Below are positions 3,379-60,390 of a stretch of DNA of 64,000 bases, piece after piece. Made by a program: the position numbers and the translations under genes. Numbering within the stretch: position 1 is the stretch's first letter; the number at the start of each line of letters is the position of its first letter. Source of the DNA: a virus. The stretch spans positions 32,001 to 96,000 of the IMG/VR virus record IMGVR_UViG_3300042698_000029. The stretch is one strand, 5' to 3'. The notes beneath the pieces were generated by a model that saw nothing but the letters and a program-made list of their open reading frames with translations, had not been told where the DNA came from and ran no database searches.

Positions 3379-5781
3379 ATGACCGATTGGGAACTGGGGA
3401 TCGCGGCGGGTGTGGCCGCGCACATGCGGCAGGTGGAGCAGCGCGCGGTATGGGCCGAGGATCCGGTTCGCTGGGCGAAGGACGTGCTCGGAGTCCACCT
3501 GTGGTCCAAGCAGGCGGAGATCGCCCGCTCGGTGGTGGAGAACAAGAAGACCGTGGTGGCTTCGTGCCACGGCACCGGCAAGGCCCTGGATCCCGCGACC
3601 CCCCTGCCGGTGCCGGGCGGGGGTTTCAAGGCCATCGGAGACGTCGGCGTGGGGGACGTCGTATGCGGGTCGAACGGCATGCCGGTCACGGTCACAGCGG
3701 TCACGGGCGTCCATGTGGCGGACCGGTGGCGGCTGACGTTCGTCTCCCCGGCCGGGGCCTCGCGCATCGTGGCGTCGGGGGACCACGTGTGGCCGGTCCT
3801 GGACGGGCAGGACCAGGCGAGGATCGCGGTGGAGTGCGAGCGCCGGGGCATCGCGGGCAACGACTTCTCCGCGTGGCAGCACCGGGCCCGAAACGTCAGC
3901 ACTCGCGAGCTCATCCGGATGCTGAAGGGCGGTCAGATGCCCTTGGTCCCGGGAGAGGACACCTTTACCGGCAGGGTGAGGCCGCTCGATTTCTCAGGAG
4001 CCCCCGCTCTGCTGGACATGGTGCGGGAGCGGGGCGTGTGCGACCGGACGGGGATGTGGTCGCTGCTGTGGATGACGACCCCCTCGTCCGGGATCGCCCC
4101 GGATCCGCACGACGAGGTGCGCCGGGCCCTGACCGCTGCCGGGGTCAAGACGATCGCCTCCTGCAAGCGGGACACCACGGCGAAGTACTGGACGCTCTCG
4201 GCGATGGGGGATCCCCGGCTGCTGCCTGTTCTGCCGTCCCTGGACGACCGGGCCCTGGCGCGGCTGAGGTTCATGGCCCAGTCGGGGAAGAAGACGGCCC
4301 CGGACTATGGCGGGTGGAGGCTCACGGAGGCCTTGCAGCTGGAGGAGGGGGATGTCTGCTGCATCGAGGTGGACGCCCCGGACCGGCTGTACCTGGCGGG
4401 CAGGGAGCGGGTGCCGACCCACAACTCCATGATCGCTTCGGTGCTGACGTGCTGGTGGGTGGCGACCCGGCCCAGGAACGACGTGATCGCGGTCAGTACG
4501 GCTCCGACCTACGCCCAGGTCAACAAGATCATCTGGGAGGAGATCCGCAAGCACCACGCTACCGCGAAGACACGCGGGACTCCCCTGCCCGGCCGGGTGA
4601 CGCAGTCGGACGAGTGGAAGGACGACGACGGGCGCGTGCTGGGCTTCGGCCGCAAGCCCATGTCGGGGGACCGGCACGGCTTCCAGGGTATCCACCGCGA
4701 GTTCGTGCTGGCCGTGATCGATGAGTCCTGCGGTGTCCCTGAAGAGGTGTGGACGGGTGTCGAGGCCATCACCACCACCGACGGCTGCCGGATCCTGGCC
4801 ATCGGAAACCCCGACGACCGCAACACCGAGTTCGGCCGGGTGTTCCTCCGCCCGGAGCTGGCGGCCGACTGGAACCGCATCAAGGTGCCAGCGTCCTCGA
4901 CCCCCAATTTCACGGGCGAGAAGGTACCGAGCCTGCTGCGACGTGTGCTGGTGTCCCCGCAGTGGTGCGAAGAGCGGCGCCGCGACTGGGGTGAGAAGGA
5001 CGCCCGCTACATCGCCAAGGTGACAGCCGAGTTCCCCGCCACGAGTCAGTCGTCGCTGATCGGCCCTCACCTGATCGAAAGCGCCTTCGAGGATGTGCCC
5101 GCGCAGGAGCGCCGCAACGTGCTGAGGATCGGAGTCGACGTCGCGCGCTTCGGACCGGACTCCACGATCGTAGTCTCCTACTGCGGCCGGACGGCCCGGG
5201 TCGAAGACGCCTGGCACGGCACGGACACGACGTCATCGGCCTACCGGGTGCTGCGGATCGCCGAGGAGTGCAGGGAACGCCTGGACGCCCAGTGGACGGA
5301 GATCCGGGTGGACGCCGTAGGCCTCGGCGCCGGTGTGGTCGATACCCTCAACGCGCGCTCGGTCCTGCTGAAGGAGCCGTGGTTCACCGTGTACGAGATG
5401 CACGGCAGTGCAGCCCCTCCGGCGGACCTGGGCGGCTCGGTGCACGGCTACGGCAACGCACGTGCGTACTGGTACGACCAGCTGCGGCAGAACATCGGCA
5501 ACCAGACGGTGAAGGTCGAGGAGAACCAGACCATCAAGGACGATCTGGCGATCGTCTACTACGTGATGAAGAACGGCCGCATGTTCATCATCTCCAAGGA
5601 GGAGATGCGGACCAAGCACGGCCGCAGCCCCGACTACTCCGACGCCCTGGTCTACGCGACAGCGCCGGTGTTCGGCGGTATGGCCACCGGATCGCTGGTC
5701 TCGGAGGACGCGGCCGACCTGGCCGAGGAGCCCGAGGACGCCCATGACTTCAAGCGTGACCTCTCTATCTCCCCCTACTGA
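3379..5781 (+). CDS. terL: Terminase large subunit containing an intein
   Basis: Walker A SCHGTGK|S split by intein, Walker B LAVIDES, AIGNP, nuclease motifs IGVDVARFGPD and SPDYSDAL. Confidence 0.95.
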   Translation: MTDWELGIAAGVAAHMRQVEQRAVWAEDPVRWAKDVLGVHLWSKQAEIARSVVENKKTVVASCHGTGKALDPATPLPVPGGGFKAIGDVGVGDVVCGSNGMPVTVTAVTGVHVADRWRLTFVSPAGASRIVASGDHVWPVLDGQDQARIAVECERRGIAGNDFSAWQHRARNVSTRELIRMLKGGQMPLVPGEDTFTGRVRPLDFSGAPALLDMVRERGVCDRTGMWSLLWMTTPSSGIAPDPHDEVRRALTAAGVKTIASCKRDTTAKYWTLSAMGDPRLLPVLPSLDDRALARLRFMAQSGKKTAPDYGGWRLTEALQLEEGDVCCIEVDAPDRLYLAGRERVPTHNSMIASVLTCWWVATRPRNDVIAVSTAPTYAQVNKIIWEEIRKHHATAKTRGTPLPGRVTQSDEWKDDDGRVLGFGRKPMSGDRHGFQGIHREFVLAVIDESCGVPEEVWTGVEAITTTDGCRILAIGNPDDRNTEFGRVFLRPELAADWNRIKVPASSTPNFTGEKVPSLLRRVLVSPQWCEERRRDWGEKDARYIAKVTAEFPATSQSSLIGPHLIESAFEDVPAQERRNVLRIGVDVARFGPDSTIVVSYCGRTARVEDAWHGTDTTSSAYRVLRIAEECRERLDAQWTEIRVDAVGLGAGVVDTLNARSVLLKEPWFTVYEMHGSAAPPADLGGSVHGYGNARAYWYDQLRQNIGNQTVKVEENQTIKDDLAIVYYVMKNGRMFIISKEEMRTKHGRSPDYSDALVYATAPVFGGMATGSLVSEDAADLAEEPEDAHDFKRDLSISPY
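3583..4425 (+). mobile_element. Class 3 intein (281 aa) with degenerate LAGLIDADG region
   Basis: Starts with Ala (ALDPATP), block B DHVW, block F VCCIEV, block G PTHN followed by Ser; inserted in Walker A. Confidence 0.9.
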
Positions 5782-15416: not shown

Positions 15417-16175
15417 ATGCCTAAGCGTACCTGCTCCGTCGAGGAGTGCGACAAGCCCGTGAGGGTCCAGGGACTGTGCGCCACCCATGCCTACCGAATG
15501 CGTAGGCACGGCACGACAGACGGAACCGGTAAGTGGTTCCGGGGAACGCCGGAGGAGCGTTTCGTCCGTATGGTCGAAGTAGACGAAGTCTCGGGGTGCC
15601 ACGTCTGGACCGGAGCCCTTTCCGACGGGTACGGGTGCTTCAACTTGGGGGACGGGCAGAAGTCCTACCGAGCCCACCGGTTCTCTTACGAGCTGGTCCA
15701 CGGCCCGATTCCGGAGGGCCTCGTCCTGGACCACTTGTGCCGTAACAGGGCCTGCGTACGGGTGGAGCACCTCGAAGCCGTGACCAGCCGGGAGAACACC
15801 CTGCGCGGAGAGAACTTCAGCGCGGTCAACGCCCGAAAGACCCGCTGCCCCCAGGACCACCCGTATGACGAGGAGAACACCTACCTCACTCCAGACGGCG
15901 GGCGTCAGTGCAAGAGGTGCCGTTTTGAGGCAGTACGGGAGCAGCGGGAGTCCGAGGACTTCAAGGAGAAGCGGCGGCAGTACTACACGCCCTCCACGGG
16001 GGTTCGCGGACAGGGGGCCTACCAGAAAGAGCGGACCTCCTGCCCGCAGGATCACGAGTACACCGAGGCCAACACGATCATTGAGAAGCGTAAGAAGCCG
16101 GACGGATCCATTCGTGAGGTCCGCAAGTGCAGGGCCTGCGTGAACGCTTTGAAGGCTGCGCGACGAGCACGGTGA
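15417..16175 (+). CDS. HNH homing endonuclease
   Basis: CSVEEC N-terminus, CHVWTGA, AHRFSYEL, LDHLCRNRACVRVEHLEAVTSREN, two CPQDH Zn fingers. Confidence 0.92.
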   Translation: MPKRTCSVEECDKPVRVQGLCATHAYRMRRHGTTDGTGKWFRGTPEERFVRMVEVDEVSGCHVWTGALSDGYGCFNLGDGQKSYRAHRFSYELVHGPIPEGLVLDHLCRNRACVRVEHLEAVTSRENTLRGENFSAVNARKTRCPQDHPYDEENTYLTPDGGRQCKRCRFEAVREQRESEDFKEKRRQYYTPSTGVRGQGAYQKERTSCPQDHEYTEANTIIEKRKKPDGSIREVRKCRACVNALKAARRAR

Positions 16176-17023: not shown

Positions 17024-17800
17024 ATGAGCACCCAGACCGACACCGAGATCGAGATCTCCGACTCGGCCCCCAAGACTCCGCCCACCCCGGCCCCGGCAGG
17101 CTTCCCCACCCCGCTCGGCTGGAACGCCCCCGACCGCGAGACGTTCTCCTTCGACAGCTACGTCCAGGGCCACTCCACCTTCCCCACCTTCGAGCACACC
17201 GTCTACCTCGACCAGGCCAAGGGCCTCGCCCTCCAGACCGCCATCGAGAAGTACGACGAGCTCGCCGAGAAGCGCGGGAAGCTGATCGAAGCGCAGGAAT
17301 CCCCGCGCTCGCGCAGCTCCTCCCTCGTCAGCGACTTCGCCGAGACCATCTCCGTCGACATCGATGAGATCGAGACGTCGATGCGTGCCCTGGAAACCGA
17401 GATGAAGGAGCTGGAGGAAGGCATCAAGAAGACCTCGATGACGCTGACCTTCCAGCTCGACAACATCGACAAGTTGACTTCCGTCGCCCGCAACGCCGAA
17501 CGTGCCTTCATCAAGAAGCACGGCAAGGGCCACGGAGACGACGACTTCAATCACATGTCGATGCGGGCCCGCTATGTCCTGCTCGCACAGTTGGACGAGT
17601 TCTGCATCGGGATCGTCTCCGCCAGCGGCAACCCCATCGAGAAGCCGGGTGCGCAGGGCTTCGCCGTCATGCTCGACCGACTCATCCCCTCCGAGTCGGT
17701 TCGCCTTCTCCAGGCCCTCAACAAGGGGCTCGACTCGTCCGCGACCTGGGCCTCGCGGATCGATGCCGGGTTTCCTGGCGGAGGCGCTGACCTGGGATGA
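17024..17800 (+). CDS. Tail assembly chaperone (G-like)
   Basis: Between tail tube and tape measure; ends IDAGFPGGGADLG. Confidence 0.8.
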   Translation: MSTQTDTEIEISDSAPKTPPTPAPAGFPTPLGWNAPDRETFSFDSYVQGHSTFPTFEHTVYLDQAKGLALQTAIEKYDELAEKRGKLIEAQESPRSRSSSLVSDFAETISVDIDEIETSMRALETEMKELEEGIKKTSMTLTFQLDNIDKLTSVARNAERAFIKKHGKGHGDDDFNHMSMRARYVLLAQLDEFCIGIVSASGNPIEKPGAQGFAVMLDRLIPSESVRLLQALNKGLDSSATWASRIDAGFPGGGADLG

Positions 17801-18176
17801 GAACTCCTGGGCCATCCCAGTACTGAAGACCGCCCGGTCCTGGAACGTTCCGCCACTGACTCTGTTCAGCGGCGAGAAGAGCGGATGGGACCTGGAGCAG
17901 AACCGCCTCTTGGCAGTGGCTCTGACGCTGTTCGAGGACGAGACGTGCAAGACGTGCGGCACGCCCGTGTGGCTCGGTCACTCCTCCAACAACGAAGTGG
18001 TCTTCGACGTCAAGACCTCCACCTGCTACGGGTGCGCGGAGATCGACAAGGCCAGAGAAGCGACCTCCAACAAGAGGTCAAAGCCCGGAGAGACGCACTA
18101 CGTGATCCCTCGCAATGTGTGGGAGGACGGCAAGCTCCCGGGCCGGTTCGAAGAGTACCAACGCGGTCTGACATAG
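17763..18176 (+). CDS. Tail assembly chaperone extension (T-like), overlapping G in the +1 frame
   Basis: LKTARSWNVPP...CKTCGTPVWLG...CYGC; overlap begins around GGG TTT C (17768-17774). Confidence 0.7.
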   Translation: MPGFLAEALTWDENSWAIPVLKTARSWNVPPLTLFSGEKSGWDLEQNRLLAVALTLFEDETCKTCGTPVWLGHSSNNEVVFDVKTSTCYGCAEIDKAREATSNKRSKPGETHYVIPRNVWEDGKLPGRFEEYQRGLT

Positions 18177-18198: not shown

Positions 18199-21100
18199 GT
18201 GGCAACACAGTTCGACGCTGTTGCCCGGCTGAGCGTTGACCTGCGGGGATTCGCTGCCGCCAGCCGGACCATGACGTCCCAGGGCGGACAGATGCAGAAG
18301 GTCTTCCGGGACCTTCACAACGTCCTCAACCAGGTCGACATCGTAGAGAAGCAGATGGCGGCCGACCTGCGCCGTACGCTGTCCGTCTTCACGGCGGCGG
18401 CCACGGCGGCGGCCAAGTACGCCCAGGCCGTGAAGGTGCTGGCGACCAACGAGGTCACGGCGGCCAACGGCGCCCAGAACATGTCGCGCGCCTTCGAGCA
18501 CCTGCGGACCGCCCTCTCCTCCATCACGGGCCTCAGCGAGAAAGAAGCCGCCCGCCTCCAGCGCACTCTCGGTCTGTACAACCAGATGGCCTCGGCCCTG
18601 CTCAAGGTCAACCAGGCGACGGCTCTCGCCGCCAAGACCACCCAGCAGGCCGGACAGGCAGAGCAGCAGCGGCTGTTGAATTCGGAGCGCCTGGCTGCGG
18701 CGGCTCTGCGTACCGAATCCGCCCAGGCCCGGCTGAACCAGCAGCTGGAACGTCAGCGGTCCATTACGCAGCAGGCGACGGCCGCGCAGACCCAGTTCGG
18801 GACATCCCTGGGCAACACGGGGCGCCTTACCCTCGCTCTGCGCGCCGACCTGTCCGAGCTGGAGCAGGCGTACCGCAAGCTCGTCTCGGGCATCACCCAG
18901 TCGGCCACCGCGTCCATCAGTGCGGCCATCTCTCATGAGGCGGCTTTCGCCCAGGTCATCCGTGTCACCGGAGAAACCGGCAAGGCCGGTGAGGCGATGC
19001 GTAAGGAGTTCGAGAAGCTCACCACCACGCTGCCGGTGTCCTTCGAGGAGCTGGCGAAGATCGGTCAGCTCGCTGCTCAGACAGGTGTCGCCAACGACCA
19101 GCTGATCCGGTTCTCCGACACCGTGGTCCGGTTCTCCGTCACCACGGGTATCGCGTCGGACCAGGTCACGGTGCTGTTCGCCCGTATCGCGGACATGCTG
19201 GACCTGCCGACCAACCAGATGAACAACTTCGCGTCCACGATCCTCAAGCTCGGTACGATCTCGGCCGCCACCGAGAATGAGATTCTGAAGGTCACGCAGT
19301 CCATTGCCTCGGCCGGTCGCGCCTTCGGTCTCTCCACCGAGGAAATCGCCGGTCTGTCCGGGGCGCTGGCCTCCCTGCGTATCCCGCCGGAGTGGTCGCG
19401 CGGTTCGGCGACCCGCATTTTCCGCGACCTCGACAACGCGGCCAACGGCGCCGGAGAGGGCATGAAGGTGCTGGTCGAGGTGCTCGGCATGAGCGCCGAC
19501 GAAATCACCAACCTGCGGCGCAACGACCCCGGCACGTTCTTCCTGAAGTTCGTGGAGGGGATGCAGCAGTTCACCCGCGAGGGGCAGCTGGCGGCAGGCA
19601 CCACCCGGACCATCACCGACGTCATGTCGGACCTCGAAATCAACGCGGTCCGAGACATCGACTTCATCACGCGCCTGGCCAACAACTTCGGCACGCTGAA
19701 GACGCAGACCAACGAAGCCTTCCTGGAGTTCGCGCGGGGAACCGAGCTGACGCGGCAGACCGAAATTGTCTTCGGTACCACGCGGCAGAACATCGACAAC
19801 CTCAAGGACGCTTTCGAGACCTTCATCGCCAAGGCGGGCTCCCCCTTTGCGAAGATCTTGGGGCTTGTCGCCGACCGGCTCACCGTGGCCATCGAGGCCT
19901 TCCAGGAGTTCGGACCCGTCGGCAAGGCGGCCGTCAGCGTCCTTATCGGCATGGTGTCCGTAGGGGCAGCTGTGGCGGCGGCCATCGGTCTGTACCGTAT
20001 GGCGCTGATCAGGACGGCCCGCAGCGTCATCGCCTTCAATCAGGTTCAGCGGGACATGAACGGCCAGGCGCTTAACGGCCGCAACGTGTGGCGTCTTTAT
20101 CGCGAACAGCAGGAGCAGACCCGTCAGTCGGTAGCGTCCAATGCCGCCGCGCAGCGGGAGGCAGCCGCGTCCACGGTTGCGGCTGGACGTGCCACCAGCC
20201 AGTCGGCGGCGGCTACTTCTCAGGTGGTGGCGTCCACCAACGCCGCTGCGGCGGCCACGGGGCGCCTCTCCAGCCAGCTGAGCTCTTCCATGACCCAGTA
20301 CAACCGGGTGACGGCTGCAACTACCGCCCAGGCCGCCGCGCAACGTTCACAGCAGATCGTGCAGAACCAGGCCAGCCGGGCGGTGGCGACGTACGCCGCC
20401 GCATGGACACAGACGGAGCGCGCCCTTCCGAGGGCCACTGCGGCGATTCGCAACGGTACCGCGTCCATGCAGCAGCAACAGCAGGTTTCCCGGTCGGTGG
20501 TCCAGGCCCAGCAGGCCATCGCTTCGTCTGCGGTCCGTACGGCAGATGCCCAGCTCCAGATGGGTATCGCCCAACGGCAAGCAGCGGCGAGCAGTGCCGC
20601 TGCTGCGGCTGGCAGCCGGGGTGTCGCAGCTTCCGCCATCGCGGCGGGTGTGGCGGTGCGAGGAGCCGCTGCGGCCATGAGTGTCTTCAGGCTGGCGCTG
20701 ACCTCCATCGGTATCGGCATCGTGATCACCGCGCTGACTTCGCTGTACTTTGCACTGACCCGGACGAAGGACGCGACACAGGAGGCGGCACAGGCGGGCT
20801 TCGACGCGGCCGGTGGCATGACGGCCTTCGGCGACGCGGTGCGGAAGGACCAGGAGGCCATTTCCAACGGATCGCGGGTCATCGCTACTTACACGGCAGC
20901 GGCCAAGGACCTGTCACTGGAGACTCGGGAGCGCATCAACGCACAGCTCGCGGCGGCCCGGCAGGAGCAGGCCTTCATTGAGGCCGTAGGCGGATCCGTC
21001 GAGGCGCTGAAGGAGCAGGCCAAGGGAACCGGCGCGTCCGCCCAGCAGGCGCAGGGGTACGTCAAGCGCTGGCTGGCCGCTGACGACGTCATCAAGAAGC

Positions 21101-23379
21101 TGACCTCCACCCTGAAGGGCAGCACTTTTGAGATCTCTGAGAACACCCAGGCCCTGGGTGAGTTCGGCGTACAGCAGGCCGTCATGGCCAGCGGAGCCTC
21201 GAAGAACCTGAAGGCCATGGAGGCTCTGCGCGACTTCGGGCCGAGTCTGCGCGAGGCTCTCAGCAAGATGTTCTCGGATCCGGCGAGCGCAGCGGAGATC
21301 CTGAACAAGGAAATCGCGCGGGTCAACAAGGCCATTCTGGACATCAAGGCCCCTGAGGATGCGACGGGCTTCCGCAATGCACGCCGCCTCATTCCTGAGA
21401 ACCTGAAGGGAGACCTCAAGACTCTTGAGGATTACTCCGAGCTTCTGTTGACCATCCAGAAGAACGCCCGGCTCAGTGATGAGGCGGTGCGCGGTGGCGC
21501 TCTGGCCAACCAGGCTTTCGGTACGAGCGCCGAGCGGGGCGGAGCGGCTGCCGATGCCATGGCCAACGGTATGGACGGGGCCACCGAGTCGGCTGAGGAC
21601 CTGAACGCTGCGGCCGGGGATCTGGCGGAGCGTACGTCGAACCTGGCGGCCGCTTTCAACTCGCTCGGCAGTTTCTCCTCCGCCATGACGGCGGCGATGG
21701 ACAAGGCCAAGGGCGCGCAGGAGGGGGCGTCGTCGGCGCAGGGTACAGCGGCCACCAACGCGGAGAAGCTCCAGGCTGCACAGGCCAAGCTGTCCGAGTC
21801 GCTGCGGACGGCGGGCGGGGACGCCGACAAGACGAAGAGCGCCTACGACAACTACAACGAGTCTCTGCGGAAGATCCAGTCTGAGTCCGACAAGACGACG
21901 TCTTCCAACCAGGCGGTACAGGCGTCCTTCAAGTCGATCATGAATGAGCTGGAGGCTGTGGCTGCGGCCCGCCTGGAGCGTGCTCAGAATCTGGTCCGCC
22001 TGTCGGCACGTATCCCGCAGGAGGTCCTTCAGGAGCTGGAGAAGCTGGGCCCGGAGTACTCCTCCTTCATTCAGCAGCTGACGACCAAGTCCGACGAGGA
22101 ACTGAAGAAACTCATTCCGGTCCTGCGCGGGGCGGGTGAGGGGGCCTCGGCGGCCTTCGCGCAGGGCCTGGCACAGGTGCTGCCGCTGGTCGCGGGGAAG
22201 GGCAAGGCGGTCGGTGACGCGGCTTCCATCGCGCTGGCGTCGGCCATCAACCAGGCCATCCAGGGCGGCGGAAACATCACCAAGGCCATTCAGGGAGTTG
22301 TCGACGCCATCAAGACGTCGCAGAAGCTCGACATCCCGTTGGATGTGGCGATCGACTTGCAGAAGACCAAGGGCGACATCGAAGCGGTCAACAAGGTCAT
22401 CCGCGATGCCGTGTCTTCTGGAAAACTGACCGCTCAGGCTTCGGTGACGCTCAAGCTGGACCTTTTCAACCAGACGCTGGCTGAACTCCAGGCCAAGGTG
22501 AAAGACTCCTCGCTGGCCGACATCAACGGCAAGGCGACCCTCAGCGTGGAGCAGTACGACCGCGACAAGGAGCGTCTCCAGAACGAAGGGACGGCCGCCA
22601 CCCTTCAGAACCTGCTCGGCATCGAGGGCCTGGCGGAGCTGAACCCCGAGGGGTACCAGGCGGCCCTCGATCTCCTGAAGCGGCTGAGCCTGAGCACCAC
22701 CGCTTCGAATTCCCTGGGGCCGGAGGGCACGCCCACCATCAACCCGGGTCCTTACGAGCATGACCTGGGCGTACTGACGCAGAAGGGGCAGGACTGGAAG
22801 GCTCTTCAGGACAGGTATCTTCAGCCTCGCCCCTCCATCGACCAGAGCCAGTACAACAAGGACCGGTCCACGATGGAGGGCAATGCGCAGTACACGGGTA
22901 ACGTGATTCAGGCGAACCTGACGCGTACGGCACGAGTGAGTGTTGCCTACACGTACTACGCGACCAACAGCCCCCCGGCTGGCGCGGACCGTGCCCAGGC
23001 CGCCACGGGTGGCTGGATCTCCGGCCCTGGCGGCCCGCGCGCGGACCGGGTGCCGATGATGCTCTCCAACGGTGAGTTCGTGGTCAACGCCCGAGCTGCC
23101 TCGCAGTACGGCTCCCTGCTCCAGGCCATCAACGACTCCGGCCTGCGCGGAGCCAGTTCCATGAGGTTCGGGGACCGTAGCCCGGGAGCGCAGTTCATGA
23201 GCTCCGTCACCCAGCGCCGTCCTGTCGGGGAGTCCCGTTTCCCGCGTCGCACCCAGACTCTCGCCACCGAGCCCCGTACGGTGATCAACGTAAGCAACAC
23301 CTACCCTCAGGCCGAGCCGACCTCCGTGACGGTCAACCGCTCGCTGGCCTACGCAGCGATGCTCGACGGGACGATCTGA
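18199..23379 (+). CDS. Tape measure protein (1726 aa)
   Basis: Length, Ala/Gln-rich helices, TP901-like core, C-terminal ATGGWISGPGGPRADRVPMMLSNGEFVVNA. Confidence 0.95.
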   Translation: MATQFDAVARLSVDLRGFAAASRTMTSQGGQMQKVFRDLHNVLNQVDIVEKQMAADLRRTLSVFTAAATAAAKYAQAVKVLATNEVTAANGAQNMSRAFEHLRTALSSITGLSEKEAARLQRTLGLYNQMASALLKVNQATALAAKTTQQAGQAEQQRLLNSERLAAAALRTESAQARLNQQLERQRSITQQATAAQTQFGTSLGNTGRLTLALRADLSELEQAYRKLVSGITQSATASISAAISHEAAFAQVIRVTGETGKAGEAMRKEFEKLTTTLPVSFEELAKIGQLAAQTGVANDQLIRFSDTVVRFSVTTGIASDQVTVLFARIADMLDLPTNQMNNFASTILKLGTISAATENEILKVTQSIASAGRAFGLSTEEIAGLSGALASLRIPPEWSRGSATRIFRDLDNAANGAGEGMKVLVEVLGMSADEITNLRRNDPGTFFLKFVEGMQQFTREGQLAAGTTRTITDVMSDLEINAVRDIDFITRLANNFGTLKTQTNEAFLEFARGTELTRQTEIVFGTTRQNIDNLKDAFETFIAKAGSPFAKILGLVADRLTVAIEAFQEFGPVGKAAVSVLIGMVSVGAAVAAAIGLYRMALIRTARSVIAFNQVQRDMNGQALNGRNVWRLYREQQEQTRQSVASNAAAQREAAASTVAAGRATSQSAAATSQVVASTNAAAAATGRLSSQLSSSMTQYNRVTAATTAQAAAQRSQQIVQNQASRAVATYAAAWTQTERALPRATAAIRNGTASMQQQQQVSRSVVQAQQAIASSAVRTADAQLQMGIAQRQAAASSAAAAAGSRGVAASAIAAGVAVRGAAAAMSVFRLALTSIGIGIVITALTSLYFALTRTKDATQEAAQAGFDAAGGMTAFGDAVRKDQEAISNGSRVIATYTAAAKDLSLETRERINAQLAAARQEQAFIEAVGGSVEALKEQAKGTGASAQQAQGYVKRWLAADDVIKKLTSTLKGSTFEISENTQALGEFGVQQAVMASGASKNLKAMEALRDFGPSLREALSKMFSDPASAAEILNKEIARVNKAILDIKAPEDATGFRNARRLIPENLKGDLKTLEDYSELLLTIQKNARLSDEAVRGGALANQAFGTSAERGGAAADAMANGMDGATESAEDLNAAAGDLAERTSNLAAAFNSLGSFSSAMTAAMDKAKGAQEGASSAQGTAATNAEKLQAAQAKLSESLRTAGGDADKTKSAYDNYNESLRKIQSESDKTTSSNQAVQASFKSIMNELEAVAAARLERAQNLVRLSARIPQEVLQELEKLGPEYSSFIQQLTTKSDEELKKLIPVLRGAGEGASAAFAQGLAQVLPLVAGKGKAVGDAASIALASAINQAIQGGGNITKAIQGVVDAIKTSQKLDIPLDVAIDLQKTKGDIEAVNKVIRDAVSSGKLTAQASVTLKLDLFNQTLAELQAKVKDSSLADINGKATLSVEQYDRDKERLQNEGTAATLQNLLGIEGLAELNPEGYQAALDLLKRLSLSTTASNSLGPEGTPTINPGPYEHDLGVLTQKGQDWKALQDRYLQPRPSIDQSQYNKDRSTMEGNAQYTGNVIQANLTRTARVSVAYTYYATNSPPAGADRAQAATGGWISGPGGPRADRVPMMLSNGEFVVNARAASQYGSLLQAINDSGLRGASSMRFGDRSPGAQFMSSVTQRRPVGESRFPRRTQTLATEPRTVINVSNTYPQAEPTSVTVNRSLAYAAMLDGTI

Positions 23380-24257
23380 TGGCAGTCACTTTCGAGATCA
23401 ACGGCTTCCTTCTGGACAAGAAGGACGTCTGCAAGGTGATGGAGGGCACCGAGTACTCCAGCGCCGTCACCATGAGGCGCCTGAACATCGACTCCCCGGG
23501 CCTGCACGGACAGATCCCCATGTGGATCGACCCCCTGGACGTCTTGAAGGTGACCCTGCGGCTGCGCGTCCTCAAGCCCCGCAAGTCAGCTCAGACCGTC
23601 CTGCACAACAACGTGCGGCTCATCCAGTCCCTGTTCCGGCCGGGCGGGTACCTCGCCTCGCAGTCTTCGATTGTCACGCCGCTCGAAATCATCCGGGACC
23701 GGGACGGCTTGCGGGTGAGGGCCTTCGCGCAGCTGGAGACCATGAGCCAGGCCGAGTACTCGCACACCGGCGGTTTCGCCGACATGACGGTGGTGCTGAA
23801 CATCCCGCGTGGCGTCTGGGAGTCCACCACCAGCGAGGACGTCAGCTTCGCCGCCAACGTGAACGGTCAGGCCTACTCCACGGCGGCCAAGACCGTGCTG
23901 CCCTTCTACCCCCTGGTCCGGGTGGCCGGTCCCTTCACTTCGGTGCAGGTGCGGGATACTCATTCCAACACGGGTGTCCTGTGGACCCGCTCGCCGGGCA
24001 TCTCCAGCGGCAGATTCCTGCTGATCGATCCCTACACGATGGGCGCCTGGGACAAGGCCACCAACGGCTGGGACCCCACCGACCCCGGCACGAACGACGC
24101 GCGCAGCGGCTTGTACGAGATCGGTAACGGTCCTCTGAATGCGACCCGGTCCTACGTAGGGACTACCCCGGTCATTCTCACAGGCATCGACACCAGCATG
24201 CTCGGCGGGTCCGGGGGCACCCCCATCACCCTACGAGGACGATACACGGAGCCGTAA
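23379..24257 (+). CDS. Distal tail / minor tail protein
   Basis: Directly follows the tape measure gene with overlap. Confidence 0.75.
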   Translation: MAVTFEINGFLLDKKDVCKVMEGTEYSSAVTMRRLNIDSPGLHGQIPMWIDPLDVLKVTLRLRVLKPRKSAQTVLHNNVRLIQSLFRPGGYLASQSSIVTPLEIIRDRDGLRVRAFAQLETMSQAEYSHTGGFADMTVVLNIPRGVWESTTSEDVSFAANVNGQAYSTAAKTVLPFYPLVRVAGPFTSVQVRDTHSNTGVLWTRSPGISSGRFLLIDPYTMGAWDKATNGWDPTDPGTNDARSGLYEIGNGPLNATRSYVGTTPVILTGIDTSMLGGSGGTPITLRGRYTEP

Positions 24258-24258
24258 C

Positions 24259-26943
24259 ATGCCCTACGGAGACGGCGAAAAGGTCTTCGGCCGACTGGTC
24301 GCCTACCTTCCCGACGGGCCTGTTCTGGGCCCGCTGTCCCACCCGATCTCATGGAACGCCTCCGTCCCTTTCAACGACATCGGCGCCCTTGAACTCGTCT
24401 ACCACCCCGAGGCGCCCAACTATGAGTTCCTCCAGCTGTACGGCGGGGAGGTCGCCGTGGAGCTCCGGGTGGACCAGTCGGATTTCTGGGTTGAGCCGCC
24501 CGGATGCCGGTTTCTGAACCTGCGCAGGCACGACGAGACTGCCTCCCGGGACGAGCCGACGCGCTTCTCCATGCCCAACTACGGGTGGCTGCTGCGCAAG
24601 GTCCGCCAGATCGACCTGTCGAAGTTCAACTCTGACGGGGTCCGGCCGTACACGAACGCCACTCCTCCGTGGGCGATGAAGGACATCCTGACGGAGGCGC
24701 AGGCCCGCAGCAACATTCCTGGTCTCGACCACAGCTCTTTCGCGCCTCTTGTCGCCTCCGACGGTGCGGGGTGGATCGAGGGCATGACGATGAGCTTCGA
24801 GATGGGCCAGGACGCCCTGTCCATGCTCGACGCGTTCAGCCGTCAGCGCCTGTGTGACTGGAACTTCTTCAAGCGGGCCCTGAACATCTACAACCCAAAC
24901 ACGTTCCTCACACAGAACGTCTCTTCCACGGTGAAGCTCTTCGACCGGTACGACGTGGTCACGTCGCCAATGGAGTTCACCTACGAGGACATGGCCACCC
25001 GCCTGCTCCAGCAGGGCGACAACGGGGCGGCCCTGGTGGTCACCGACGCCAAGCCGTTCTCCCCGTGGGGCGCGTGGGAGGAGTCGTCCACCGCGTCCGG
25101 TGTGTCCGACCCCTCCGAGCTGACGCGGCTGGCCCAGAAGGACCTCGCATCCAAGTACGACTACAAGACCGAGTACACCAAGGAGGTGATCTTCCGGCAG
25201 AACACCCCCAAGCCGCTGATCGACTTCTACCCCGGCAACCTGATCACCACGAATCAGTCCAACGCCGCCCGCGTCCAGCAGATCACCATCACCTGCGACG
25301 GCCCGCACAAGGCGGTGCGTGGCTCACTGGTCCTCTCCAACCACCCCGACGTGAACCGCATGGTGCCCCGGGAACTGCGCCAGCAGCGGTGGATCAACTC
25401 CTTGATCGGAGGCGGCGGAGTAGGCGGGTCGGCGGCCACCGGCGGCAACGGCATGTTCAACTTCACCCGCGTCGCTCCCTCACCCCCTGCCCCCAACGCA
25501 CCTGCTCCGGCCCAGGTGACGGGTGTGGTCGCCACCAATGGACCCGGCTTCGACTCGATCGGACATCCCGAGGCCCAGATCCTCCTCAGCTGGAATCCGG
25601 TCACCACGGACGCCACCGGTGCGGCGATGAGCCCCGCCTACTACCAGCTGATGATCCAGCCCACCATCTACACCAGCGACCGTCCCATCCCCATGGAGGT
25701 CAGCTCTGCCTCCACGCAGGCCCACGTGGTGGTGGACAACGACGGCAGCTGGAACTACGCGGTGCGGGCGGTGTCCCAGCAAGGCGTGACGGGGGCATAC
25801 TCGGCCACCGGCACTATTGCGGTCACGTGGCCCACCACGAGTCCCCCTACCGCTTCGGCTCCCTCCTTGTTCAGCCTCTCCAACCAGGTCCGGGTCGCGT
25901 GGGACGGACTCGATTCCACGGGAGCAGTTCCCCCTGCCTACGTGAAGTACTACTGCATCGAGAGGTCCACCACTTCTTCCTCCACGGGGTTCGGCGGCCT
26001 GGGTGCCTTGGCGGCTTACGGCCAGGGGTTTGACAACCGCATGCACGACACCCTGAACACCGGCACGGTCGTCTGGTACCGGGCCCGCTTCCGGGACAGT
26101 GCGGGGAACTTCGGTCCGTATTCGTCCGTTGTGAGCACTACGGTGGCGGGTCCGTCAGGGTCCATTCCTGTCGGTTCGCTGAACGCGAACGTCCTTCAGG
26201 ACGGGACGATCACCACAGCGCAGATCGGGACGTCCGCTGTACAGGGTTCCCAGATCGGGTCGTACGAGGTCTACAACGAGAACCTCCTCACAGGGCGCCC
26301 CTCGCGCAACCTCGTCCGGGACTCCAGTGCTTCTACTTTCCAAGGGGCTTTCCGAGCACAGTGCTCGAACTCGGCAACGAACTCGGCTACCCGCTGCCCG
26401 TGGACGTGGACGGCCTCGGTGGGGTGGTCCTCGGTCCTGAGCGCAGGCGGTGAGTACGACAACCGCCTGGTCTTGATCAACAGCGGCAACAAGTTCCTCG
26501 ACGCCACCCCGGGCTCGACCACCCAGGCTCTTCCGAACCTGGACTACGGCTACCTGGTGGATCCGGAGAACGGTCCGCTGAAAATGTCCTTCCGGCAGAA
26601 GATCCAGTCGGCTACGTGGCCAGCGGCGGGCCAGGGGATCAAGATCCAACTGTTTGCCCGGTTCTACACCGCAGACGGGACGGCCATCGGAGGAACAGCG
26701 CAGCTCCTGTACGACGGGCCGTTCCAGAACGTCAATACGCCATCCGGCGGTGGAACGATCGACTACGCCGTGGTGAAGAACAATGTCGGCTTCACGTTGG
26801 GGGGCGGCACCGTTCCGGCAACCAACGACGCGGCCTTCTTCCTGCCCTATTTCCGTGTAACGTCCACGGGTATGAGTGGTCGAGCAGGTGTGCAGGTGCG
26901 CATCACCCGGCCGTTCATCGTGCAGTCCAACGAGACCATCTGA
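24259..26943 (+). CDS. Minor tail protein (Tal/hub) with FN3-like domains and probable receptor-binding C-terminus
   Basis: WVEPPGCRF N-domain; LSWNPV, YAVRAVS, VRVAWDG, WYRARFRDSAGN FN3-like motifs. Confidence 0.8.
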   Translation: MPYGDGEKVFGRLVAYLPDGPVLGPLSHPISWNASVPFNDIGALELVYHPEAPNYEFLQLYGGEVAVELRVDQSDFWVEPPGCRFLNLRRHDETASRDEPTRFSMPNYGWLLRKVRQIDLSKFNSDGVRPYTNATPPWAMKDILTEAQARSNIPGLDHSSFAPLVASDGAGWIEGMTMSFEMGQDALSMLDAFSRQRLCDWNFFKRALNIYNPNTFLTQNVSSTVKLFDRYDVVTSPMEFTYEDMATRLLQQGDNGAALVVTDAKPFSPWGAWEESSTASGVSDPSELTRLAQKDLASKYDYKTEYTKEVIFRQNTPKPLIDFYPGNLITTNQSNAARVQQITITCDGPHKAVRGSLVLSNHPDVNRMVPRELRQQRWINSLIGGGGVGGSAATGGNGMFNFTRVAPSPPAPNAPAPAQVTGVVATNGPGFDSIGHPEAQILLSWNPVTTDATGAAMSPAYYQLMIQPTIYTSDRPIPMEVSSASTQAHVVVDNDGSWNYAVRAVSQQGVTGAYSATGTIAVTWPTTSPPTASAPSLFSLSNQVRVAWDGLDSTGAVPPAYVKYYCIERSTTSSSTGFGGLGALAAYGQGFDNRMHDTLNTGTVVWYRARFRDSAGNFGPYSSVVSTTVAGPSGSIPVGSLNANVLQDGTITTAQIGTSAVQGSQIGSYEVYNENLLTGRPSRNLVRDSSASTFQGAFRAQCSNSATNSATRCPWTWTASVGWSSVLSAGGEYDNRLVLINSGNKFLDATPGSTTQALPNLDYGYLVDPENGPLKMSFRQKIQSATWPAAGQGIKIQLFARFYTADGTAIGGTAQLLYDGPFQNVNTPSGGGTIDYAVVKNNVGFTLGGGTVPATNDAAFFLPYFRVTSTGMSGRAGVQVRITRPFIVQSNETI

Positions 26944-26952
26944 GAGGTCGCC

Positions 26953-27351
26953 GTGAAGAAGCTCCTCGCCGCCATCACCACGCTGATGGCGGCGACCGCC
27001 CTGACCTGCACCCCGGCCCAGGCCGCGCCTGCCGGGACAACGATGCTCCTCACCGTCTACTCCATGAACGACGGCACGGGCCAGCCGTCCACCAAGCTCG
27101 ACGCCTGGTACCTCGGGTGTTTTCCTCCCGCCGGTACCCATCCCGACTACAAGAAGGCCTGCAAGCTGCTCAGCAAGGTCGACGGCTGGGTAGAGGCCAT
27201 CGAGCGCGACGACCGTGCCTGCACCACCGAGTACAAGCCCGTGATCCTGCGCATCGAAGGGACCTGGAAGGGCCGCGAGCTCTACTGGACCGACCACTAC
27301 GGCAACCGGTGCGAAGCTGCTGCGGCCACCCGGGATCTGTACCCGGTCTGA
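26953..27351 (+). CDS. Secreted Streptomyces subtilisin inhibitor (SSI, family I16)-like protein
   Basis: Signal peptide ending AQA; LGCFPPAGTHP..ACKLL, ACTTEYKPV, GTWKG, YGNRCE. Confidence 0.9.
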   Translation: MKKLLAAITTLMAATALTCTPAQAAPAGTTMLLTVYSMNDGTGQPSTKLDAWYLGCFPPAGTHPDYKKACKLLSKVDGWVEAIERDDRACTTEYKPVILRIEGTWKGRELYWTDHYGNRCEAAAATRDLYPV

Positions 27352-27360
27352 AATTGGAAT

Positions 27361-27394
27361 CGGGGCGGCAGGGGAATGGGGTCCTGCCGCCCCG
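27361..27394. terminator. Terminator between the convergent structural and replication arms
   Basis: CGGGGCGGCAGG...CCTGCCGCCCCG. Confidence 0.7.
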
Positions 27395-27416
27395 ATGAGG
27401 AGCTGCACGTTCCACT

Positions 27417-27911
27417 CTAGCGCCCGGAGCGCACTCGCTGGGGAAAAGCCATACGGCAAGTCGGCCGGTGCCGCCGGTCGAAAAGATGGGTCACACCGTG
27501 CCGCAGAGCGTCGTTCATGTGCTGGGAATTCTTGCCCCGGGCCCGCAGCCCCATGCGTTCCAGGACCGCATCGGTGATCATCATCTTCCCGCCGACCGGC
27601 TCCTGCCAGACCACCTGGTTGTACGGGTTGTCGTCCCTGATCCAGATCTTGACGTGGTCGATGACCTTCTCCGGCGTCGTGTCGGGGATCATCAGTCCCG
27701 GCCGGGTGTGGAACGCCTCCCCCACGAATCCGTGCCGCCCGGGGATCTGGGCCCACTGCTTGAGGGTGTCCAGCGGGGTGAGGTAGTTGGCCGGGTCGTA
27801 GGCGACGGCCGCTGTCTCGACGCGGACCAGCTCACCCTCGGTGGCCAGCAGCAGGGCCAGGCCTGTGGTCGAACCCGGGTCCATGCAGGACAGGTACAGC
27901 GGGTAGGACAT
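27417..27911 (-). CDS. RuvC-like Holliday junction resolvase
   Basis: MDPGSTTGLA, VGEAF, HMNDALRH; GGAG RBS. Confidence 0.8.
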   Translation of the reverse strand: MSYPLYLSCMDPGSTTGLALLLATEGELVRVETAAVAYDPANYLTPLDTLKQWAQIPGRHGFVGEAFHTRPGLMIPDTTPEKVIDHVKIWIRDDNPYNQVVWQEPVGGKMMITDAVLERMGLRARGKNSQHMNDALRHGVTHLFDRRHRPTCRMAFPQRVRSGR

Positions 27912-28083
27912 GGTCGCTCCTCGGGTTCGTCGGGTCCGGCAACGCCGGGGTGATTGTGGTGATAACCTCACCTCAGATGAACCGGTGGACCAGCCCCCCT
28001 TGATTCCCCGGTTTGCGCCTTGGATCGGGCGCCTGGAGCTCCGTGCCGCTTCCCACTCCTTTGGGGCACGGAGCTCCCTTCTT

Positions 28084-30117
28084 TCAGGCCGCCATCGCGA
28101 GGTTCTCCTGGTAGGCCTTGTAGTGCTTCTGCCAGGCCTTGCCCTTCTCCTTGTCGTAGCACTCGCCCCAGTTGTCGCCGGGGTTGGAGACGTCGCAGTC
28201 GAAGAAGACGTCGCGCCAGGTGACCCGGAGGCTTTCCTGGACGATCATCGCGACTTCTTCGTAGCGCGCCTTGGGTACGGACAGGACGACCTCGTCGTGT
28301 ACGACCATGAGGAGCATCTGTCGGACCCACAGCGGCATCTGCCGGACGCCGCGCATGATGATCTCCCTGGTGCCCGACTGCCCGTACAGAGCGGGACCCT
28401 GGGTGTGGGCCTGAATCGGGTCGCAGCGCATGGAGCGGCCGAAGCCGTTGTTCAGGATCCAGCCGGACTCCGCCTCCTTGCGGGCCTCGTTGGTCCAGGC
28501 GTTCAGCACCCGGTAGGTCCGGGCCCGCATCTCGAAGTACCGCTCCACAATCTCTCGCGGCAGACCGGTGTTGGCGATGGTCGAGTCGACGCCCATACCG
28601 TAGTTGACGCCGTGGCCGATGGCCTTTGCCTGGTCACGCAGGTACATCATGTTCAGCTGGATGAGCGCTTCCCGGGCCCCGATCTCCCGGGCCAGCTCCT
28701 GGAGCTCCTTGGTGCCGAGCAGGGCGACGGCCACTTCCGCGTGGGCGTCGCGGTCCCCGACGAAGAGCTTCATGTACTCGGGGTCCTGGCTCAAGGCGGC
28801 CATGATCCGCATGTCGCCCTGGGACAGGTCGGAGCACATGATGGCCTCGTCCGGCCGCCGGGGGATGATCAGGCTGCGCTGCTGGAGTCCGGCTCCCCGC
28901 TTGCCCACGTTGGTGATGGAGGGCTGGATGAAGGCAACCCTGCGGCTGACCTGGAGGTCACCGATCTTGGAGTGCACCATGCCGTCGGGACCCGTCTTGT
29001 TGCGGATCTCGGCGAACTTGCGGGACTTGCCGGAGATGACGGTGGCGAGCTGACACATCTCCTGCACTCGTGGGTTGTCCGGGTACAGCTGGCGCAGCCC
29101 GGCCCGGCGCTCGCGCACCTTGCGGATCTGGATGTACGACTCCTTGTTGCGGCTGTCGTACCTCTTTTGCTCCTTCTCCACGGTCACCACCCAGTCACCT
29201 TCGGACAGGGCGTCCTTGGCCGTGGTGACCTTGCCCGTATTGGGCGTGCGAGGAATGTCCTCCGGTGCCACCCCGGCCGCCAGGAGACCGGCCTCGAAGG
29301 CTTCACGCCCGAGGTTCGTCGCCAGAGGAGCTTCACCTGTCTCGGGGATTCCCGGGCACAGCTCCGTGAGCTGCATGCGGGCCTCGGCGACCTTGGCGTT
29401 CTCTTCAGCCACCCGCAGGTCGGCGGTCGGGATGTGGATGCGGCAACCGTGGTAGGTCATGCGGTTCAGGTTGCGGAAGTTCTCCAGCTCGTCACGGGAC
29501 ACACTGCGGTTCAGGTGCCTCCACAGCTTGCGGAAGACGTCCTGGGTGGAGATGAGGTCGCCTTCCAAGTACTCGATCAGCTCCGGGTCCCACCAGGGGA
29601 TCAGGTGGTACGCACCCAGCTCCTTGTACTTGGCGCGCACGGCCCGCTTGGCCGCCTGTGCCTCGCGTCCGGTGAGTCCTTCAGCCGCCTCGGCCGCCAT
29701 CTCCTCGATCACGCGGTTCGACAGGCGCTTGGCGGAGTCGGTCTTGCCCTCGACGCCGACGCGCTCGGCGATGGCCTGGAGGTTGTACAGGACCGTCGGC
29801 ATGGTCTTCGGCGCCGGAGGGTGCTCTTCCTGGGCGAGCACCATGATGTCGAAGGCTTTGGCCATCAGGGCTTCGTAGTTGCCCCCCGCGTGCACGCACA
29901 GGGCCGGGATGTCGAACGCGTAGATGTTCTGGCCGTAAATGATGTCGGCGGCCATCAGAACTTCGAGCAGTTCGGCAGGATCGTTGGTGACGTGCGTGAC
30001 GCCGTCTTCGATCCAGCCGCACAGAACGATGTACGGTTCGGGTTGGTCCCAGACGTAGAGGCGCTCTGCGGTCCCTGTTTCCAGGTCGAAGCCTACGATC
30101 CTCTTCTTCGGGTTCAT
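28084..30117 (-). CDS. Family A DNA polymerase with 3'-5' exonuclease
   Basis: Exo motifs FDLET, GQNIYAFD, YLEGD; polymerase motifs DLSQGDMR, RDQAKAIGHGVNYGMG, VHDEV. Confidence 0.95.
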   Translation of the reverse strand: MNPKKRIVGFDLETGTAERLYVWDQPEPYIVLCGWIEDGVTHVTNDPAELLEVLMAADIIYGQNIYAFDIPALCVHAGGNYEALMAKAFDIMVLAQEEHPPAPKTMPTVLYNLQAIAERVGVEGKTDSAKRLSNRVIEEMAAEAAEGLTGREAQAAKRAVRAKYKELGAYHLIPWWDPELIEYLEGDLISTQDVFRKLWRHLNRSVSRDELENFRNLNRMTYHGCRIHIPTADLRVAEENAKVAEARMQLTELCPGIPETGEAPLATNLGREAFEAGLLAAGVAPEDIPRTPNTGKVTTAKDALSEGDWVVTVEKEQKRYDSRNKESYIQIRKVRERRAGLRQLYPDNPRVQEMCQLATVISGKSRKFAEIRNKTGPDGMVHSKIGDLQVSRRVAFIQPSITNVGKRGAGLQQRSLIIPRRPDEAIMCSDLSQGDMRIMAALSQDPEYMKLFVGDRDAHAEVAVALLGTKELQELAREIGAREALIQLNMMYLRDQAKAIGHGVNYGMGVDSTIANTGLPREIVERYFEMRARTYRVLNAWTNEARKEAESGWILNNGFGRSMRCDPIQAHTQGPALYGQSGTREIIMRGVRQMPLWVRQMLLMVVHDEVVLSVPKARYEEVAMIVQESLRVTWRDVFFDCDVSNPGDNWGECYDKEKGKAWQKHYKAYQENLAMAA

Positions 30118-50170: not shown

Positions 50171-50932
50171 CTACTTGTGGGTGATGGTGAACTTGGCGGT
50201 CTTGGCCTGCGTGGTGATGACCACGAAGACCGTCTCGCCGTCCCGGGTCTTCGCCATGCAGAAGGAGCCCATGGCGATCGTTCCGGCGGGGACGCCGAAG
50301 ATCTCGGCCGACTCGGGACCCATCTTGGTGTCGCCGAACTCCGTGGTGTAGTCCTCCACGTCCCACCCGAGCCACTGGCTCATGTTGATCCCCGAGGGCG
50401 GGCTGACGATCGGGTGGCCGACCGGCGTCATCATCGGTGCCATGCCCGAGTAGCCGGGGTCCTGCGGCATGGCCACGGCTCGGTCGTAGGGGAGGACGGT
50501 CACCTTGTGCTGCACCGGGGCGCCGTTGACGCGCTTGACGTAGTGGCGCTCCACGATCTGCGTCCCGTCGGCGATGCCCCACTCGGTGAGGCCGTTCGCT
50601 TCGGAGATGCCGACCTTGTAGAGGGTGGTCTCCTTGACGTCGTTCTCGTCGTCGGTGCTCCACACCGGGAGGGTCCAGTCCGGGGCCGAGTCGAAGGTGC
50701 CCAGGTGGATCTTGGTGGTCTTGGAGCCGATGACCCACGTGCCGGACTTCTTGGAGATGCGCACCAGGCCTCGCAGGGCCAGGGCCTGGTAGGCGGCCGA
50801 CGCCGTCTGGGCGGAGACCCCTTCCTGGGCACCGAGCTCGCGGACGTTCAGGAGCTTCTTGCCGTACTCGTAGCCCTCGGCCCCAGCCGCGATCAGGACC
50901 TCGATCTTCTCTGCGATCTGCTGCGCATCCAT
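50171..50932 (-). CDS. GntR-family repressor with UTRA-like domain (KorSA/TraR-like)
   Basis: LLNVRELGAQEGVSAQTASAAYQALALRGLV...GTWV. Confidence 0.8.
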   Translation of the reverse strand: MDAQQIAEKIEVLIAAGAEGYEYGKKLLNVRELGAQEGVSAQTASAAYQALALRGLVRISKKSGTWVIGSKTTKIHLGTFDSAPDWTLPVWSTDDENDVKETTLYKVGISEANGLTEWGIADGTQIVERHYVKRVNGAPVQHKVTVLPYDRAVAMPQDPGYSGMAPMMTPVGHPIVSPPSGINMSQWLGWDVEDYTTEFGDTKMGPESAEIFGVPAGTIAMGSFCMAKTRDGETVFVVITTQAKTAKFTITHK

Positions 50933-50968
50933 CGTTTCTCCTCGGTTGTGTTCCAACAGGTTACTTCT

Positions 50969-60102: not shown

Positions 60103-60390
60103 ATGAGTACCACCTACGACACCGAGTGGATGTCTCAGATGGCTTGCACGGGCCACGACCCGGACGAGCTCTTCATGGACGGGGCCGCCCAGAGCCGGGG
60201 CAAGAGGATCTGCGCTCCGTGCCCTGTGAAAGCGGAATGCCTGGCGTACGCCAAGGAGCGCGGCATCGACCACGGTGTGTGGGGCGGCTTCACCGACCGG
60301 GAGCGGCGTGAGCTGGACCGGAAGTTCCCTTCGGTCACCGACTGGAAGCGGTTCATCCTGGACGCCAGGTCCCGGCAGGGCGCGGTCTAG
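60103..60390 (+). CDS. whiB: WhiB-family Fe-S transcription factor
   Basis: AC...DPDELF, ICAPCPVKAECL, GVWGG. Confidence 0.95.
   Translation: MSTTYDTEWMSQMACTGHDPDELFMDGAAQSRGKRICAPCPVKAECLAYAKERGIDHGVWGGFTDRERRELDRKFPSVTDWKRFILDARSRQGAV

Follow-up and report, generated by a model that had tools for sequence, protein, structure and literature searches.

Large actinophages of one lineage carry, fixed at the end of the tail operon, a gene for a genuine member of the SSI (subtilisin inhibitor) family, which is a new setting for these proteins. In the probably lytic 153-kb phage that we studied, this gene is likely to encode a working, exported standard-mechanism (i.e., substrate-like) inhibitor, which would lower extracellular serine proteolysis by the host to the benefit of released virions. 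The window that we analyzed is a 64,000-nucleotide stretch corresponding to bases 32001-96000 of a 153,126-bp IMG/VR virus record, which has end repeats (an exact repeat of 119 bp), is rated 100% complete, and has a G+C content of about 65%. SSI-type inhibitors are textbook secreted proteins of actinomycetes, tied to the protease cascade that feeds aerial growth. The role given to them in the initial annotation, which is to modulate extracellular protease cascades during Streptomyces development, agrees with section 18 of PMC4255298, where Sti-type inhibitors, described as unusually diverged, are said to keep this cascade inactive.

As for the protein, the ORF at 26953-27351 (plus strand) opens with a GTG codon and encodes 132 residues, and profile, sequence, and fold comparisons bear out the assignment to the SSI family that had been made by eye. 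The Pfam SSI profile (PF00720), which we take to be MEROPS family I16, matches the ORF with 71.8 bits (E 4.9e-20, cut-off 23.9), residues 30-118 covering profile positions 4-92 of 92, and the same ORF scores 69.8 bits in a six-frame search of the genome. A phmmer search of PDB sequences recovers the SSI-family chains 6i0i, 2tld, 3ssi, 5sic, 3sic, 2sic, and 4hwx with E values ranging from 2.5e-11 to 2.5e-8 (2.5e-11 for 6i0i, 3.8e-11 for 3ssi). The AlphaFold2 model, based on a 41-sequence alignment (mean pLDDT 88, pTM 0.75), is predicted to adopt the SSI fold, with its five-stranded sheet and two helices. When this model is compared with the PDB using Foldseek, the 12 top matches listed are all SSI-family chains (E 1.8e-9 to 1e-7, TM on the target 0.74-0.88). 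The best is 3ssi (E 1.8e-9, TM 0.86 on the target, identity about 31-32%), followed by 6i0i, 2sic, 3sic, 4hx3, 2tld, 5sic, 4hx2, and 4hwx, and the next match listed has an E value of 0.085.

The four cysteines that had been recognized as following the SSI pattern, C56, C70, C90, and C120, do align with the four SSI cysteines in the PDB alignment. They are invariant in the 13-sequence clade described below, and across the 41 sequences of the family alignment C70 and C90 never vary and C56 and C120 hardly do. By comparison with the disulfides of SSI, presumably Cys35-Cys50 and Cys71-Cys101, mature phage SSI is predicted to contain Cys56-Cys70 and Cys90-Cys120 disulfides. The mature SSI domain (codons 25-132 plus the stop, 27025-27351, plus strand), supported by Pfam, the PDB alignments, and the fold match, is preceded by what reads on inspection as a Sec-type signal peptide (codons 1-24, 26953-27024, plus strand), MKK-LLAAITTLMAATALT-CTPAQA|AP, in which MKK is followed by a 15-residue hydrophobic core and an AQA|AP end. 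This layout is kept in 13/13 clade members, likewise by inspection, with K2, K3, and the P-A-x-A end conserved within the clade, and a low-confidence helix (residues 5-18) precedes the SSI domain in the structure model. The leader contains a fifth cysteine, C19, which prompted us to consider a lipoprotein; this was rejected because the preceding A-L-T is unlike a lipobox and the clade does not conserve C19. A Tat signal was also rejected, twin arginine being absent from the leader.

In the alignment with 3ssi, the C-P-M-V-Y of SSI falls on C90 (P3), T91 (P2), T92 (P1), E93 (P1'), and Y94 (P2') of the phage protein (27220-27234, plus strand). Since we take the scissile bond in SSI to be Met73-Val74, P1 is Thr92 and P1' is Glu93, which upholds the C-T-T-E-Y loop with a P1 Thr in the initial annotation. 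The loop in full, C90-T91-T92-E93-Y94-K95-P96-V97, sits directly after the third Cys and ends in x-P-V. A recognizable loop frame is present in 189 of the 261 SSI family members compared, and phage SSI has the commonest one, C-T-x-E-Y-x-P-V, with an uncommon P1 within it. Among these 189 loops, Thr is the P2 residue in 124 and Glu the P1' residue in 74 (as it is in CI-2), and P1 is Met in 51, Leu in 40, Lys in 24, Arg in 19, Asp in 12, and Thr in 7. Against subtilisin, SSI tolerates most P1 residues, β-branched ones giving weaker binding. Since a P1 Thr is both unusual (7/189) and β-branched, the allele in the window might be a weak inhibitor or have another target.

The plus strand 5' of the SSI gene encodes a Phage_capsid_4 capsid, a tail tube, an HNH endonuclease, a tape measure, and proteins of 292 and 894 aa, which, in a complete IMG/VR virus record, leaves the phage context that had been proposed well founded. 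The HNH endonuclease gene (15417-16172, plus strand, HNH_3 57.5 bits) sits between the head-tail and tail tube genes. The tape measure gene (18199-23379, plus strand, 1726 aa) matches Pfam PhageMin_Tail with 65 bits and is ordered as gp60 of the Streptomyces phage Satis. It is followed on the same strand by the 292-aa tail-module gene (23379-24257), which has the position of Satis gp61 and neither a Pfam nor a PHROG match, and by the 894-aa minor tail protein gene (24259-26943), which aligns by tblastn with the "minor tail protein" of Satis-like phages (30% identity over 96% of the length). PHROGs holds no family for the SSI or the 894-aa protein either. The stop codon of the minor tail gene (TGA, 26941-26943) is separated by a 9-bp gap from the GTG of the SSI gene at 26953. 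A Shine-Dalgarno-like GAGAGG (26942-26947, plus strand), 5 nt 5' of the GTG, overlaps that stop codon and reads GAGGGG and GAGGAG, respectively, in L003 and L002, two metagenomic relatives of the locus.

Seven nt past the SSI stop, between the convergent tail and replication modules, lies a 15-bp G+C-rich hairpin (27359-27396) with a folding energy of -39.5 kcal/mol (z -4.6, equaled by 0/200 shuffles), whose stem is preserved in L003 and L002 via compensatory paired changes. The hairpin is a probable bidirectional terminator. It lacks a T tract and went undetected in a promoter/terminator scan of 22000-29000, which returned 0 promoter-like sites (0.7 expected). These coordinates and the fold agree with the earlier description of a last cistron, 9 bp past the tail gene, with a terminator behind it. 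The minus strand beyond encodes a 184-aa protein (27417-27971) without a Pfam match, which by synteny has the position of Satis gp66 (a RuvC-like resolvase), and a family A DNA polymerase (28084-30117, DNA_pol_A 84.9 bits), the first recognizable gene of the convergent replication module. In view of the spacing and common strand, we infer that the SSI gene is co-transcribed with the tail genes. Five sequencing runs were matched, all labeled soil metagenome; three contain part of the stretch (best share 0.41), and none of the runs containing it is an RNA run.

The capsid protein shares 71% identity with its counterpart in seven Streptomyces phages (JustBecause, Kela, Quantum, Satis, Kradal, EhyElimayoE, and Frankenweenie), and the 894-aa protein is 30-33% identical to the minor tail protein of these seven Satis-like phages. 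A megablast of 6 kb against GenBank phages found no close relative; records of the window itself or of very near kin may be omitted from this search. Since its nearest cultured phages infect Streptomyces, the phage probably has Streptomyces or a close actinomycete as its host. The gene order of the window backbone is that of Satis, i.e., tape measure, gp61, minor tail gp62, gp63-65, the convergent RuvC-like resolvase, DNA polymerase I, gp68, and primase/helicase. However, the slot 3' of the minor tail gene is occupied in Satis by gp63-65, three unrelated genes that belong to no Pfam family and are not SSI, and in the window by the SSI gene. The SSI gene is absent from all seven Satis-like phages and consequently is not essential to this type of phage. 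Neither the complete genome nor Pfam scans of its 189 ORFs of at least 70 aa revealed a tyrosine or serine integrase family, and the phage is therefore probably lytic. The "either lifestyle" in which the initial annotation had envisaged expression is thus probably inapplicable.

A search of 5.8 billion proteins identified 13 relatives of phage SSI with 58-82% identity (12 full-length and one 83-aa fragment), all with an SSI domain. Some of them are on contigs of 107, 141, 149, and 224 kb, a hint that other members have a phage setting. A maximum-likelihood tree built from 72 SSI proteins places the window's protein and the 12 full-length relatives in one clade (ultrafast bootstrap 100, SH-aLRT 97), the sister of which is the metagenomic protein P0016 (98/90); deeper nodes in this tree are without resolution, and its bootstrap is not fully settled. 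The genomic setting is confirmed in three of the 13 clade members, the window, L002, and L003. Over 16 kb of a 94-kb contig, L003 shows the succession tape measure, 293 aa, 895 aa, SSI, hairpin, convergent 165 aa, and polymerase, while L002 shows the end of the tail gene, SSI, and the hairpin as in the window. The mature part of the protein is under purifying selection, with a dN/dS of 0.13-0.16 at a dS of 0.69-0.78; that of the leader is 0.58-0.92.

In an exhaustive profile search with 1033 matches at E<=0.001, the scores are 244 and 209 bits for the clade, 139 and 133.5 bits for two intermediates, and at most 87 bits for the bulk of the family. P0016 is 42.5-44% identical to the window's SSI, and other non-clade proteins are 26-39% identical in the family alignment and at most 45% identical by blastp. 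A close cellular donor was sought in 185,579 species genomes, which gave 28 pattern matches and no relative, and IMG/VR searched by protein or alignment yielded no close relative of SSI, with the caveat that own or very near records may be left out. One of the two intermediates, P0015 (139 bits, the third-best match of the clade profile), is a 495-aa protein with two SSI domains in low-complexity, eukaryote-looking sequence.

Within the clade, P1' is Glu in 12/13 members, and P1 is Lys in 9/13, Asp in 3/13, and Thr in 1/13, the latter being the window's protein. The sister protein P0016 also has a P1 Lys. Since one of the P1 Asp proteins (P0008) groups in the tree with two Lys proteins, as a well-supported trio, and not with the remaining Asp proteins, P1 has changed at least three times in the clade (Lys to Asp at least twice, Lys to Thr once). 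The P1 codon is AAG in L002 and L003 and ACC in the window, which amounts to two substitutions. Such repeated changes are as expected if protease specificity were under shifting selection.

In the phage collections searched, SSI genes are rare. Queried by tblastn with three different SSI proteins, 50,697 GenBank phage records gave no match, and a structure search of BFVD with the SSI model gave none at E<=0.001 (best TM 0.33). For IMG/VR, the census consisted of two degenerate motif scans, and because the motif is found in 175 of 261 family members, about two thirds of the family is visible to it. The scans returned 1 and 48 stretches, one of the 48 being a real SSI gene (L014:12621-13178, minus strand, Pfam 87.7 bits), with a C-T-T-Q-Y loop and a P1 Thr. 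It is carried by G001, a 38,977-bp IMG/VR contig rated 27% complete that encodes terminase, tape measure, minor tail, and ParA-like proteins. The gene is on the reverse strand, about 3 kb past the tail genes and near the ParA-like partition gene, and may be expressed from a plasmid-type prophage. Its product is 58% identical to P0029 and 41% identical over 80 residues to the window's SSI. Since the phage genes of the two contigs are unrelated and their SSI proteins belong to different subfamilies, we regard this as an independent capture. A related phage may carry a second SSI gene near a gene for an M4 metalloprotease, because P0361 (a lipoprotein-type SSI of 148 aa, 38% identical) and P0166 (an 88%-identical relative of the M4 protease discussed below) both list a longest contig of 40,352 bp. 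The parts of the literature available to us contain no description of an SSI encoded by a phage, or of a serine-protease inhibitor that a phage secretes, and nothing usable on virions being inactivated by extracellular proteases. To our knowledge, no secreted standard-mechanism inhibitor is known from a phage.

How could such a protein act? Translation would take place late, on the transcript of the tail operon, and would be followed by Sec export and cleavage of the leader behind AQA. The mature protein of roughly 108 residues, locked by two disulfides, would offer its loop, C90-T91-T92|E93-Y94, to the active site of extracellular serine proteases of the host, of subtilisin or chymotrypsin/trypsin type. 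The S8 and S1 protease families are absent from the phage genome, and therefore the canonical SSI targets should be host enzymes. Proteolysis would fall around infected and lysing hyphae, the most direct benefit being that released virions, above all the exposed tail proteins encoded by the same operon, are spared degradation. Virion shielding and the holding of a developmental cascade are both plausible benefits of an exported SSI, and its biochemistry is very likely ordinary for the family. The initial annotation had named virion protection, the blocking of a protease-dependent defense, and altered host development as candidate benefits, which look alike at the sequence level.

Phage SSI and the SSI of S. 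albogriseolus (3ssi, 2sic), which forms a homodimer, have the same fold (TM 0.86), with four cysteines placed alike and the loop after the third Cys, and share a mature size of about 110 residues as well as secretion, predicted by inspection for the phage protein. They differ in their reactive sites, C-P-M-V-Y with a P1 Met versus C-T-T-E-Y with a P1 Thr, are about 31-32% identical, and are encoded on a bacterial chromosome and in a late tail operon, respectively. Sti (SCO0762 of S. coelicolor) and the Sti-like inhibitors of complex actinomycetes belong to the same family, by family placement rather than pairwise alignment, and the clade's ancestral P1 Lys fits a trypsin-type inhibitor of this kind. 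Sti is encoded by the host and is under developmental control (AdpA), whereas the phage copy would be made during infection. SSTI (6i0i) and sermetstatin/ScNPI (4hwx, 4hx2, 4hx3), which are the best and seventh-best PDB sequence matches of phage SSI (E 2.5e-11 and 2.5e-8), are SSI-family proteins with the same fold that also block metalloproteases. As for other viruses, T4 PinA blocks Lon and lambda cIII blocks FtsH, both cytoplasmic, ATP-dependent proteases, and poxviruses secrete serpins. These resemble phage SSI in being virus-encoded proteins that block a host protease (a predicted property for phage SSI); PinA and cIII are from unrelated families, and the serpins are eukaryotic-virus proteins with a different mechanism.

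The same biochemistry as in virion protection could bring another benefit if phage SSI mimicked a host Sti-type inhibitor and held the extracellular protease cascade inactive, thereby blocking the switch, fed by lysis, to the aerial hyphae and spores by which the plaque is otherwise walled off. We consider this possible but rather unlikely. A P1 Lys is of the trypsin-inhibitor type, and Lys is the ancestral P1 of the clade (9/13 members and the sister P0016), as such mimicry might lead one to find, and the same genome encodes a WhiB protein, a type of developmental regulator. Moreover, according to PMC10117723, aerial hyphae together with spores at the interface of the plaque contain infection, and a mutant with vegetative growth only shows no plaque constriction. 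However, phage SSI is tied to no protease of the cascade, and its host is deduced from phage relatives. In addition, PMC4255298 describes the specificity of Sti as dependent on P-domains in the target proteins and as species-specific, whereas phage SSI is just 26-45% identical to the cellular SSI proteins compared. With similar reserve, one may picture a secreted Sti mimic that freezes the cascade and keeps neighboring hyphae from becoming phage-refractory aerial mycelium or spores; this would be a diffusible, community-level counter to "developmental containment," of which the Lys/Asp/Thr switches at P1 would be an arms-race trace.

The phage also encodes a metalloprotease, and some SSI-family members inhibit metalloproteases according to their PDB titles, which led us to weigh whether SSI is the partner of this enzyme, as SSTI controls TAMP and sermetstatin controls snapalysin. 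The gene in question, outside the window (genome 102829-103851, L007:7832-8851, minus strand), encodes a protealysin-like M4 metalloprotease of 340 aa (Peptidase_M4_C 178 bits) with intact HEIGH and NESFAD motifs, an IIPPHL motif near the N-terminus, and no signal peptide. Among cellular proteins, homologues from Streptomyces and Microbacterium share 45-50% identity with it. Some of these are fusions with the inhibitor emfourin, for which (PF20242) there is no match in the phage genome at E<=1 or in the ORFs beside the M4 gene at E<=5. In favor of a pair, the peptidase is intact and comes without emfourin, the best PDB sequence match of phage SSI (6i0i) is entitled "transglutaminase-activating metalloprotease inhibitor," and in two relatives the genes appear to share a contig, the longest-contig sizes 149186 and 223950 having come up in the searches with either protein. 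Nevertheless, such a partnership, drawn by analogy, is very unlikely. All seven Satis-like phages have an M4 homologue (34-36% identity, annotated only "metalloprotease") without SSI, and the two genes are 44 kb apart on opposite strands. The proteins are predicted to be in different compartments, SSI having a signal peptide and M4 none; TAMP and snapalysin are secreted host enzymes, and binding of phage SSI to M4 is without support. The P1' Glu of 12/13 clade members is a poor fit to the hydrophobic S1' pocket of thermolysin-type enzymes. A complex prediction with mature SSI (25-132) and M4 (52-340) scored 0.00 in both runs, which were without controls, and counts neither for nor against the pair. 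A functionless passenger, i.e., a host gene recently captured in a variable slot at the operon end and of no benefit to the phage, is disfavored and, in our estimation, highly improbable. Three unrelated genes do occupy this slot in Satis and the SSI gene is missing from the cultured relatives, but the position of the gene is kept across a dS of 0.6-0.78 with the low mature dN/dS given above, the four cysteines and loop frame are invariant in the clade, and a close donor did not emerge from the cellular genomes searched, non-clade proteins coming no nearer than P0016 (42.5-44%) and others of at most 45% identity.

If phage SSI is, as we favor, an exported inhibitor of host serine proteases that benefits released virions, it may be the first instance in which a phage influences the surroundings of its host via a secreted protease inhibitor, and we found no described precedent for a phage with such a predicted activity. 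Since an SSI gene is fixed in one lineage and was independently captured by a second, unrelated phage, extracellular proteolysis appears to matter to phages of filamentous bacteria, possibly because proteases destroy virions or drive the developmental switch by which plaques are contained. Being small and easy to express, and occurring naturally with Lys, Asp, or Thr at P1, the protein offers a probe for the host proteases that limit phage spread.

Several other genes of this phage were noted. In the early or middle region of the window are genes for an FtsK/SpoIIIE-like protein (57931-59988, plus strand), a WhiB-type regulator (60103-60387, plus strand), and two GntR-family regulators (50174-50956 and 62316-63047, both minus strand), one with a UTRA domain; these are regulators of host-development type. 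Outside the window and far from the tail operon, on the minus strand, are genes for two proteins with collagen repeats, of which one has a GDSL lipase/esterase domain at its C-terminus, and for a GDPD phosphodiesterase protein (L008:15802-17724, L009:2273-4489, and L009:593-2221 for the group), which may be fiber or envelope-degrading proteins. A plus-strand block, also outside the window (L008:3449-9597), contains group-1 glycosyltransferase and NAD-dependent epimerase/dehydratase genes, the products of which may modify sugars on the virion or host surface. The minus strand of L009, outside the window as well, encodes a 91-aa Fic/DOC-domain fragment (4896-5168), a TerD-domain protein (18993-19706), the match of which is weak (24.7 bits, just below the cut-off), and an HU-like DNA-binding protein (17464-17967).
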